A stretch of DNA of 43,055 nucleotides from a virus: IMG/VR virus record IMGVR_UViG_3300034072_001079. One strand, written 5' to 3'. Under the pieces are notes generated by a model, which was given only the letters and a program-made list of their open reading frames with translations, did no database searches and was not told where the DNA came from. The position numbers and the translations under genes were made by a program. Of this stretch, positions 20,836-23,238 are shown one piece after another (position 1 is the stretch's first letter; each line of letters opens with the position of its first letter).

Positions 20836-21267
20836 ATGCAGTGGCAACGCGCTAAACCCTGGACCTCCGGCACGGAACAGCCGCGCGGGTTGGTGCGGGT
20901 AGCGTCGCACTGTTTCCCCGCGGTCTGGGTCGAGTACGACGCGGGTACGGTGAACTGGCCCGAGGTGGCTTTTTACCGACTCCCGGCCACCCCGGAAGGC
21001 CGGCGCGAGGCGGACCGCATCCGCAAAGCGAACGCGCGGGCCGTGAAGCCCGACGAGTCGGTGCTGGTGCTGCCGTTGCCCGTGGGCACCCGCGACGCCC
21101 TGAACCGCGTATGCGCGCGGGCCGGGTTCACCGACCGGCGCGAGCTGCTGGCAACCCTGATCCACAACCTTGACGGCTTGGACTGTCCGACACTCGGCGC
21201 GCTTTTAACGCAGACTGTCCGGGTAGGTGACCTGAGTAAATACTTTGGGAGGCTGACCGATGTTTGA
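20836..21267 (+). CDS. Hypothetical protein
   Basis: 143-aa ORF, ATG 7 nt after GGAGG. No recognisable motif. Confidence 0.6.
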   Translation: MQWQRAKPWTSGTEQPRGLVRVASHCFPAVWVEYDAGTVNWPEVAFYRLPATPEGRREADRIRKANARAVKPDESVLVLPLPVGTRDALNRVCARAGFTDRRELLATLIHNLDGLDCPTLGALLTQTVRVGDLSKYFGRLTDV

Positions 21268-21613
21268 TTCTATCGCTTCGCTATTCTGCGCCCTGGGCGT
21301 CGCCTGGGTCGGCTACACCCTGGCGTTTATCGTGGCCCATTGGTGGGCGGACCAGTGGTTCGACCGCCACGGCGCGGCCCACCATTGCGAGGAATGCGGC
21401 TCTGGTTACCTCGTGCCGACCGAGCGGGCCGAAGTGGCGCACGTCGTTTCGGAGGTGGACTGGCACTGTGGCCGCTGCGGCGCCCATGTGGGGTATTGGG
21501 CCTATGGGCAAAACCATCCGGGGTGGCGCGACGAGTGTGTGGCTGATGCCATGCTGCTCGGGCGCTGGCTTGGCCCGCTGCTGGCCGTGGGGGTAGCGCT
21601 GTGCTTAATCTGA
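21260..21613 (+). CDS. Membrane protein with zinc ribbon, function unknown
   Basis: N- and C-terminal hydrophobic helices flank CEECG...CGRCG. Confidence 0.6.
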   Translation: MFDSIASLFCALGVAWVGYTLAFIVAHWWADQWFDRHGAAHHCEECGSGYLVPTERAEVAHVVSEVDWHCGRCGAHVGYWAYGQNHPGWRDECVADAMLLGRWLGPLLAVGVALCLI

Positions 21614-21795
21614 CCACGTGGGCCGCCCGCTGGGGCGTCCCGCTCGAAGCGCTGCAGGATCTGCGCGCACAGCTCGGCCTGATCAACGACCTGCCCGCGC
21701 CGATCAGCGGCACGAGCGAGGCGGACGTGATGACCCTGGGGCGCTGGCTCGGCCCGCTGCTGGCGGTGGGGGTGGTGCTTGTCGGCCTACTATAA
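21601..21795 (+). pseudogene. Chimeric duplication remnant: 5' 124 nt of the VRR-NUC gene fused to a second copy of the 3' end of the upstream membrane-protein gene
   Basis: 21601-21724 matches 22768-22891 at about 91% identity (11 mismatches, nearly all synonymous). 21739-21779 matches 21560-21600. The 64-aa ORF is still open. Confidence 0.6.
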
Positions 21796-22774
21796 CGAAA
21801 TTGACCCGTACGCGGCCCAATGGCTGCGCAACCTGATCGCCGCCGGCCATATCGCGCCGGGCGACGTAGACGAACGCTCAATTGAGGACGTGCACCCCGA
21901 TGACCTCCGAAAATATACCCAATGCCACTTCTTCGCCGGAATCGGGGCCTGGAGCCTTGCGCTACGTCGGGCTGAGTGGGATGACACCCGCCGAGTATGG
22001 ACAGGCTCTTGCCCCTGCCAACCTTTCTCCGCGGCAGGCCAAGGCGCTGGGTTTGCTGACGAGCGGCATTTGTGGCCCGCTTTCCACTGGCTTATCGCCC
22101 AGTGCGCCCCTTCAGTCGTCTTTGGAGAGCAGGTTGCAAGCCGTGACGCAGATGCTTGGATCGACCTTGTACAAGCTGACCTGGAAACCCTGGGCTACGC
22201 CGTCGGGGCCGTCCCGTTCCCGTCTGCGGGCGTCGGTGCGCCGCACATCCGCGACCGACTGTACTGGGTGGCCAACCACAACGGCAACGGACGCAATACG
22301 CCGCCCCGGGGTCGAGTTCACCACCAGAAACATCACGTTGAATCACGCGGCAGTGCTGACCGGCTGGAATACGCCAATGGCGCGGGATCACAAGGGCGAT
22401 CCAGAGGCGCCGCGCCAGAAGGGACGTGCATTGCCCTTCCAGGCCGCAATGGCAGGCTGGCCGACGCCGAACACAATGGACGTGGTCGACCGGAGGCAGT
22501 TCCGACCCAGTCGAGTGGCGACGAATCGCGCTTCCGGCTATCTGACCGAGGATATTCTGCACCTCAAGGACAACCCACAACCGGCCCGGTTAACGGCCAC
22601 TGGCGAGATGCTGACTGGCTCTTCTGCAGGGATGGAAAGTGGCGGCCAGTTGAACCCGGCGCATTCCCGCTGGCTTATGGGGCTCCCGCCCGAGTGGGAC
22701 GCCTGCGCGCCTACGGAAACGCCATCAATGTTGAAGCGGCGACGCAGTTTGTCAGGAGCTACCTAGAATGCTGA
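21779..22774 (+). CDS. DNA (cytosine-5)-methyltransferase, frame A
   Basis: Motif [52 protein letters not shown] start. The region between VIII and X is low-complexity Gly/Arg/His. Confidence 0.85.
21981..22766 (+). CDS. Nested +1-frame ORF carrying TRD-like GWPTP repeats and a motif IX-like string (possible second methyltransferase subunit or ancestral frame)
   Basis: Track ORF 21882-22766, first ATG at 21981. [30 protein letters not shown] and [16 protein letters not shown]. Third-position GC is higher than in frame A across 22265-22600 (hand count). Confidence 0.35.
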
Positions 22775-23238
22775 ACCTAACAACCTGGGCCGCCCGCTGG
22801 GGCGTGCCGCTCGAAGCGTTGCAGGATCTGCGCGCACAGCTCGGCCTGATCGATGACCTACCCGCGCCGATCAGCGGCACGAGCGAGGCGGCGGTGCAGA
22901 ATCGCGTCAGGCTGGCCGCTGCTGAGCGAGGTGCGCGCTACTGGCGCAACAACTCCGGGGCGTATAAGGACGACTCGGGCCGGCTCGTGCGGTACGGCCT
23001 GGCCAATGACTCCGCAGCGCTGAATGCCGTGCTCAAGTCGTCTGACCTGATCGGCGTCGAGCCGTTGCAGATCACTCAGGAGCACGTGGGCCAAACGGTC
23101 GGCCTGTTCTCGGCGATTGAGTGCAAGCCGGTCGGCTGGCAGTACACCGGAACGGACCGGGAGCGGGCACAGCTCGCGTTCGGACAACTGATTATCAGCC
23201 TGGGCGGCCGGTTCCGGTTCGCTTCGGGCGGGGAGTAA
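22768..23238 (+). CDS. VRR-NUC domain nuclease
   Basis: WRNNSGAY.., SDLIGV and AIECK (D...ExK core). ATG overlaps the methyltransferase stop (ATGCTGA). Confidence 0.8.
   Translation: MLNLTTWAARWGVPLEALQDLRAQLGLIDDLPAPISGTSEAAVQNRVRLAAAERGARYWRNNSGAYKDDSGRLVRYGLANDSAALNAVLKSSDLIGVEPLQITQEHVGQTVGLFSAIECKPVGWQYTGTDRERAQLAFGQLIISLGGRFRFASGGE

Follow-up and report, generated by a model that had tools for sequence, protein, structure and literature searches.

The window analysed here is the whole of a viral DNA stretch of 43,055 nucleotides (nt; IMG/VR record IMGVR_UViG_3300034072_001079). The subject of this report is a gene in it for a DNA cytosine C5-methyltransferase whose conserved motifs are divided between two overlapping open reading frames (ORFs). 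Frame A contains the ORF referred to as alpha (21779-22774, plus strand), which has the start TTG and the stop TGA and encodes 331 amino acids (aa). Frame B, which is shifted by +1 relative to frame A, is open from 21882 to the TAG at 22764-22766 (plus strand). Counted from its first in-frame ATG, it gives the ORF referred to as beta (21900-22766, plus strand; 288 aa), which lies wholly inside alpha: it starts about 40 codons into alpha, ends 8 nt before the alpha stop and amounts to 87% of the alpha length. The original prediction, made from this sequence, placed motifs I-VIII and X in frame A, and the target-recognition domain (TRD) with motif IX in frame B; every string and coordinate given there for the split was found again (Table 1). 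The hand-counted third-position G+C content (GC) over 22265-22600 (about 73% in frame B and 57% in frame A) also agrees with our values of 0.72 and 0.57. The first ATG of frame B had been placed at 21981, which has to be corrected to 21900; the latter is the start chosen by a gene caller for an identical 288-aa protein (P0001) on another public contig.

Table 1. Features of the alpha and beta frames, with positions in the window (pLDDT, predicted local distance difference test; dN/dS, ratio of the nonsynonymous to the synonymous substitution rate)
Feature	Position	Strand	Frame	Basis
Alpha N-terminal catalytic domain through motif VIII, plus RLYWVA	21779..22273	+	A	pLDDT, dN/dS, invariant columns
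GAGGA, possible Shine-Dalgarno sequence of beta	21884..21888	+		sequence read directly
Motif I, FFAGIGAW	21929-21952		A	
Motif IV, SCPCQPFS (PCQ cysteine)	22007-22030		A	
Beta conserved N-terminal domain over alpha motifs IV-VIII	22017..22250	+	B	loss of variability at frame A third positions
Motif VI, FGEQV	22121-22135		A	
Motif VIII, GAPHIRDR	22235-22258		A	
Beta G-W-(P/N)-T-(P/T) modules, three	22266..22481	+	B	frame B dN/dS 0.18, dS 0.61
First module, GWPTTTATD	22266-22292		B	
Second G-W-(P/N)-T-(P/T) module	22362-22397		B	
Third module, GWPTPNTMD	22455-22481		B	
Alpha tether, residues ~166-269, Gly/Arg/His-rich	22274..22585	+	A	dN/dS 1.84, stop-free
Dual-coding zone: beta C-terminal block overlapping the alpha hairpin and the beginning of motif X	22578..22721	+	A, B	constraint in both frames
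Alpha C-terminal block: hairpin and motif X helix	22586..22774	+	A	near-invariant in frame A
Motif-IX-like string	22650-22697		B	
Motif X, YGNAI string	22712-22741		A	

Conservation of the two-frame layout

The alignment of homologous loci proposed in the original prediction turned out to be informative. We collected 86 loci by frame A patterns and, independently, 80 loci in bacterial genomes by frame B patterns. In all 86 loci of the first set (GC 52-67%) frame A is uninterrupted from end to end of the gene, the +1 frame is 91% open and the +2 frame 19%. The prediction had cautioned that long shadow ORFs are common in such DNA, and rightly: after synonymous shuffling of frame A the +1 frame is still 48% open on average, which remains well below the observed value. 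In the second set, frame A is open and carries motifs I, IV and X in 78 of the 80 loci. The nested layout is found in loci down to 51-56% GC, and its carriers include Vibrio (51.5% GC), E. coli, Klebsiella, Rhodobacter and cyanophage genomes. No unsplit single-frame relative was present among the weakest phage tblastn matches (Rhodobacter, Klebsiella, Vibrio, Cylindrospermopsis, Xanthomonas FoX4, Erwinia and Komagataeibacter), all of which are nested.

The closest phage relative found is gp33 of Burkholderia phage BcepC6B, with about 80% nucleotide identity and an identical two-frame layout. The middle of the annotated frame looks like junk there (..RLADA..), and the open +1 frame gives GWPTPTA, GWPTPTTTDFKG and a motif-IX-like string. 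Frame A alone is annotated in this phage, and the flanking genes differ from those in the window. Both frames have been annotated elsewhere: ORF31 ("C-specific methylase") and ORF30 ("Mte8-like protein") of E. coli phage K1G correspond to the same two homologous frames in the nested +1 geometry (GC about 53% across the stretch fetched), and both nested coding sequences, gp32 and gp33, are annotated in K1ind2. These pairs, as well as the PHROG families 363 and 1008/31772 discussed below, are known solely as database annotation.

Complete E. coli genomes gave 68 matches, all of them chromosomal. The two copies that we examined are surrounded by phage-type genes with no endonuclease gene adjacent, and in both of these prophage copies RefSeq annotates alpha only. 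For the copy of E. coli ECCTRSRTH03 (L093, 2363-3532) RefSeq gives two partial pseudogenes despite an uninterrupted frame A and leaves frame B unannotated; annotation based on protein alignment probably fails there because of the variable tether and a small insertion at the C-terminus.

Selection in the two frames

The rate of mismatch by codon phase was compared over 3,081 pairs of loci, and dN/dS (omega) was estimated by the Nei-Gojobori method for 39 independent pairs (Table 2). Outside beta, the third position of frame A is the variable one. Between motifs VIII and X (the middle), this role passes to the third position of frame B. The synonymous rate (dS) of frame A is halved over motifs I-VIII, and both frames have a low dS in the C-terminal overlap.

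Table 2. Mismatch by codon phase (A1 = B3, A2 = B1, A3 = B2) and substitution rates, by region
Region	A1	A2	A3	Reading	omega A	omega B	dS A	dS B
Before B starts	0.107	0.086	0.510	A coding	0.08		0.98	
Motifs I-VIII	0.181	0.129	0.369	A mainly	0.19		0.51	
Middle (VIII to X)	0.386	0.217	0.177	variable position = B third	1.84	0.18		0.61
C-terminal overlap	0.167	0.104	0.199	no position free			0.27	0.18
After B ends	0.298	0.246	0.504	A coding				

No stop codon occurs in the frame A middle in 79 distinct loci, against 2.1 expected per locus when frame B is shuffled synonymously (the probability of finding no stop being 0.16 per locus); the third frame has 4.1 stops. The openness of the frame A middle is therefore selected, and full-length alpha is made. 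The corresponding stop test for the N-terminal half is partly circular, since that region is set by the last stop in frame B, and we relied on the per-codon table instead. According to this table, third positions of frame A are free up to motif IV, after which their variability is lost in blocks that encode conserved strings of frame B. Motif IV is overlaid by ANLSxRQAKxLGLMTSG, motif VI by LQSSLESRL and motif VIII by LRAS..RTS; a further block ends in.TPSG. Some codons are variable in alpha and near-invariant in beta (alpha I125, 0.68, versus beta S, 0.05; alpha L132, 0.48, versus beta W, 0.00). Thus, selection acts on beta over the catalytic core, upstream of the variable region by a wide margin. 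Over roughly the last 45 codons of frame B, either frame can be the more conserved one, depending on the position.

These data show that purifying selection maintains both frames, separately where each has a region of its own and together where they share one. The double coding constraint also explains why 22581-22749 (169 nt) has 88-95% nucleotide identity to many Pseudomonas (PMG1, Haboob) and Burkholderia phages, with the remainder unmatched. Recombination between methyltransferase cassettes could also take place at this segment.

The catalytic chain

Frame A matches PF00145 with 51.2 bits (cutoff 22) over residues 75-179 only (profile positions 66-169, motifs IV-VIII). Its score against TIGR00675 is under the cutoff, with an alignment starting at residue 42, and PHROG 363 is matched at full length (E = 2e-88). 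At least 8,000 homologues are named DNA cytosine methyltransferase. FFAGIG, PCQPFS, GEQV, IRDR and YGNAI all stand in this one frame and are invariant or nearly so among 53 homologues.

The AlphaFold2 model of alpha has pLDDT mostly of 80-95 for residues 1-170 and also of 80-95 for the motif X helix (302-330); residues 171-278 are disordered (about 30), and the hairpin is weak. The best Foldseek matches of this model are M.HhaI, M.HaeIII, DNMT2 and DNMT1 (E from 2e-6 to 1e-4, about 170 columns). The TRD and motif IX, which are expected between motifs VIII and X on the same chain, are missing from frame A (22274-22585).

The tether that occupies this place in alpha varies widely in length between homologues. 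Only one locus of the approximately 160, in Consotaella salsifontis (L174, from the set collected by frame B patterns), carries a stop codon in the tether; it is a single one, and frame B is intact there. This locus could have decayed to a pseudogene or represent a three-piece variant, or the stop could be a sequencing error. Another peculiarity is a string in alpha resembling motif II/III (21788-21835) upstream of motif I (21929-21946), and the N-terminal 45 residues may represent an unusual or permuted arrangement.

The nested chain

The searches suggested in the original prediction gave a divided answer: frame B has thousands of protein homologues, but PF00145 falls in frame A only. The frame B query retrieved 7,368 predicted-protein homologues, none with a Pfam domain (E down to 1e-110 for the non-identical ones), and an exhaustive search gave 10,588 clusters at 50% identity. 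In PHROGs, frame B belongs to families 1008 and 31772, which are separate from family 363 of alpha and bear the label DNA methyltransferase.

The number of W-P-T-P modules differs between the beta homologues, while their W and T are invariant in the alignment. The string at the C-terminus had been called a "textbook" motif IX. It is near-invariant and does fit the outline L.P......[LV]MG.P..[WY]; however, the wording was too strong, as the string has no Pfam, PDB or PHROG link to motif IX and PF00145 covers neither frame B nor an artificial chimera joining the frames in the order A-B-A. The beta leader (the first 39 or so residues) is not conserved. AlphaFold2 gives beta a mean pLDDT of 55, and the helix and hairpin of the N-terminal domain are the only confident part (about 80).

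Of 79 loci, 77 have a frame B ATG at a distance of 9-39 codons upstream of motif I. Its commonest site is the GAT-G of the alpha string IEDV, and it often stands behind a well-spaced AGGAG composed of the Arg-AGG and Ser-AGT/AGC codons of the alpha string DERSIED.

Several beta homologues deviate from the common form. In Edwardsiella phage eiAU-183 (L002, 1610-3034) frame B lacks its usual stop and continues in frame into gp15, which gives an open frame of 474 codons. An NPPY motif suggests that gp15 is a Dam-type adenine methyltransferase, and a fusion of beta with a Dam-type enzyme is possible. In a beta-type protein (P0106) the EWDDCAP site contains an insert rich in Cys and His that is HNH-like (HHVDED...N), and the flank is duplicated. 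A similar string, PCEICG, follows the end of frame B in Komagataeibacter phage phiKX1 (L092, ~1990-2050), where frame A has no YGNAI motif in the stretch translated. Judging from these sequences, the dual-coding zone may be an insertion hot spot for homing endonucleases.

Genomic context

The neighbours of the gene in the window are a helicase, small ORFs with no assignment, an endonuclease-like protein of PHROG 93 and a primase, which together make up a replication module. There is no restriction endonuclease partner among them. The enzyme is an orphan phage methyltransferase, since the gene is surrounded by the replication module and no restriction enzyme is nearby.

The methyltransferase cassette lies within a duplicated gene junction (21528-21795 and 22768-22924). 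Positions 21602-21729 repeat 22769-22896 with 91% identity and correspond to the 5' end of the downstream endonuclease-like gene; positions 21557-21600 and 21736-21779 are repeats with 89% identity and correspond to the 3' end of the upstream gene (21260-21613). A chimeric ORF of 64 aa (21601-21795) combines the N-terminus of the downstream gene with the C-terminus of the upstream one. It looks as if the cassette was inserted precisely between GTGCTT and AA(T/C)CT.

Discussion

The distribution of motifs between the two frames is confirmed as a real property of the locus and not a sequencing artefact. We believe that the locus encodes two polypeptides from overlapping frames, with alpha as the catalytic core and beta as a nested small, or recognition, subunit, and we put the probability of this reading at about 0.68. 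The original prediction had listed a nested second polypeptide as the first of its three options, and it is this option that the homologues of beta, the purifying selection on it, its own ATG and its separate annotation in E. coli phages favour.

In the fold common to C5-methyltransferases, the large domain comprises motifs I-VIII together with X, and the small domain comprises the TRD and motif IX (PMC3404938). Because the split between alpha and beta follows this domain boundary, and from the resemblance of motifs, we infer that the small domain lacking in alpha is provided in trans by beta. Alpha would then consist of the large catalytic domain with motifs I, IV, VI and VIII, about 105 tether residues in which nothing but the absence of stop codons matters, and, after a short hairpin, the helix of motif X, which would pack back on the catalytic domain. 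Beta would consist of the leader, a helix-hairpin domain encoded over alpha motifs IV-VIII, the variable W-P-T-P modules and the C-terminal motif-IX-like block. Presumed binding of beta to alpha would produce the active enzyme, and the methylation probably protects the phage DNA from host restriction.

Several points weigh against this reading. Association of the two chains, and any enzymatic activity, are predictions. Searches with frame B in Pfam and NCBIfam, in PDB sequences and in PDB profiles gave no match, and a Pfam scan of the A-B-A chimera and of two alternative C-termini did not extend the PF00145 match. Sub-regions of beta, compared with the PHROGs up to E = 10, matched beta-type families only and no family of single-chain methyltransferases. 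The beta model is too poor for a fold comparison. The spacing from GAGGA to the ATG at 21900 is 11 nt in the window, which is above the ideal. Finally, the likeness to the best precedent, considered next, is one of layout and published description rather than of sequence.

This precedent is M.EcoHK31I, the primary work on which is reportedly that of Lee, Kam and Shaw (1995). As outlined in the passages of PMC2836561 and PMC3404938 that deal with it, M.EcoHK31I (recognition sequence YGGCCR) is a C5-methyltransferase of two polypeptides, with beta encoded inside the alpha gene in the other frame; alpha carries motifs I-VIII and X, beta carries motif IX, both chains are needed, and the N-terminal part of beta is dispensable. 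The gene in the window shares with it a second ORF nested on the same strand in a different frame and an alpha chain with motifs I-VIII and X. The dispensable N-terminal part of that beta also has a counterpart here in the unconserved leader. The differences are as follows. M.EcoHK31I belongs to a restriction-modification system, whereas the gene in the window is an orphan of a phage replication module. Its beta has 176 aa, whereas the one described here has 288 aa, extends over 87% of alpha and has a selected domain over motifs IV-VIII. In the literature, the TRD of M.EcoHK31I is placed in alpha, whereas here the variable region of alpha is unselected at the amino-acid level and the beta frame is selected. 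The name EcoHK31I occurs in no record searched.

The original prediction cited M.AquI as the precedent for a split enzyme. This is apt insofar as M.AquI is a natural two-subunit C5-methyltransferase split in the variable region, but M.EcoHK31I is closer, with its beta inside the alpha gene in another frame. The M.AquI subunits are consecutive, the first with motifs I-VIII and half the variable region, the second with the rest and motifs IX-X (PMC3404938). In the window, by contrast, the catalytic chain includes motif X, and the second chain is encoded inside the first gene instead of after it.

The serious rival is a role of beta other than recognition. Beta would be real and selected, yet not a methyltransferase subunit but a regulator, an anti-defence factor or another DNA-binding protein, and alpha would be a minimal methyltransferase of low specificity. 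We consider this unlikely, although not negligible. It would agree with the fact that no profile or structure search links beta to the small domains of C5-methyltransferases, with the very short middles of some alpha homologues, and with the conserved alpha hairpin before motif X, which could contact DNA. Yet the stretch of alpha between motifs VIII and X lacks any selected sequence, and to our knowledge the TRD and motif IX lie between these motifs in all solved C5-methyltransferases. Moreover, about 160 loci encode beta and alpha strictly together, the nested beta chain of M.EcoHK31I is needed for methylation, and frame B of eiAU-183 runs into a Dam-type methyltransferase gene, which connects it with DNA methylation.

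A single A-B-A polypeptide could also be proposed, for which the ribosome would have to shift frame twice in a programmed way, by +1 behind motif VIII and by -1 ahead of motif X, because the canonical order I-VIII / TRD-IX / X is obtained only when the frames are joined. We regard this as very improbable. A stop-free middle of frame A would be needless, frame B is open and selected far upstream over motifs IV-VIII with its own ATG and Shine-Dalgarno sequence, and the frame A residues upstream of motif X are near-invariant within the overlap with the conserved end of B. Nor did we see a slippery heptamer or a homopolymer run at either junction in the window.

An artefact or decay (two assembly indels, or a dead gene with compensated frameshifts and a frame B that is open only through high GC) can draw on the frequency of long shadow ORFs at 64% GC and on the half-open shuffled +1 frame, but it is refuted by the comparative data: the layout recurs in independent loci of many genera even at low GC and also in the published BcepC6B genome, the frame B middle combines low dN/dS with a normal dS, the +2 frame is mostly closed, and the same sequence is present on the independent contig of P0001. 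Two indel errors, the third option of the original prediction, can accordingly be set aside. Its second option, a compensated pair of frameshifts, may describe how the arrangement evolved, but not its present state, with both frames selected.

Conclusions

As an architecture, the nested beta is already known from M.EcoHK31I, and a few phage genomes have annotations for both ORFs. The literature that we searched contains no analysis of the overlap, of the scale of the family, of selection switching between frames, of an alpha variable region that is merely a spacer, or of the overprinted N-terminal domain of beta; and neither Pfam nor NCBIfam has a model for frame B.

If the activity requires beta, silent recoding or codon optimisation of a cloned "methyltransferase ORF" of this type would destroy the enzyme, predictions of specificity from alpha alone would be meaningless, and annotation of alpha alone would omit a required subunit. 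Naturally heterodimeric C5-methyltransferases are in use as split-enzyme scaffolds, and the alpha/beta family would add thousands of variants, with modular subunits for recognition, to those available for such engineering.

The locus is a clean natural example of selection switching frame along one stretch of DNA, with a spacer in which it is enough to avoid stop codons and about 45 codons under double constraint. We give an even chance to the broader statement that a very large family of phage and prophage C5-methyltransferases (more than 10,000 clusters at 50% identity) depends on obligatory dual coding, with the TRD moved to a +1-frame subunit, the "variable region" of alpha turned into a stop-free spacer, and a new beta domain overprinted on motifs IV-VIII. 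If this is true, overlaps of about 290 codons, covering 87% of the host gene, would be among the longest and most widespread same-strand overlapping pairs in prokaryotic viruses, and the textbook assignment of the TRD to alpha in enzymes of the M.EcoHK31I type would be due for re-examination.

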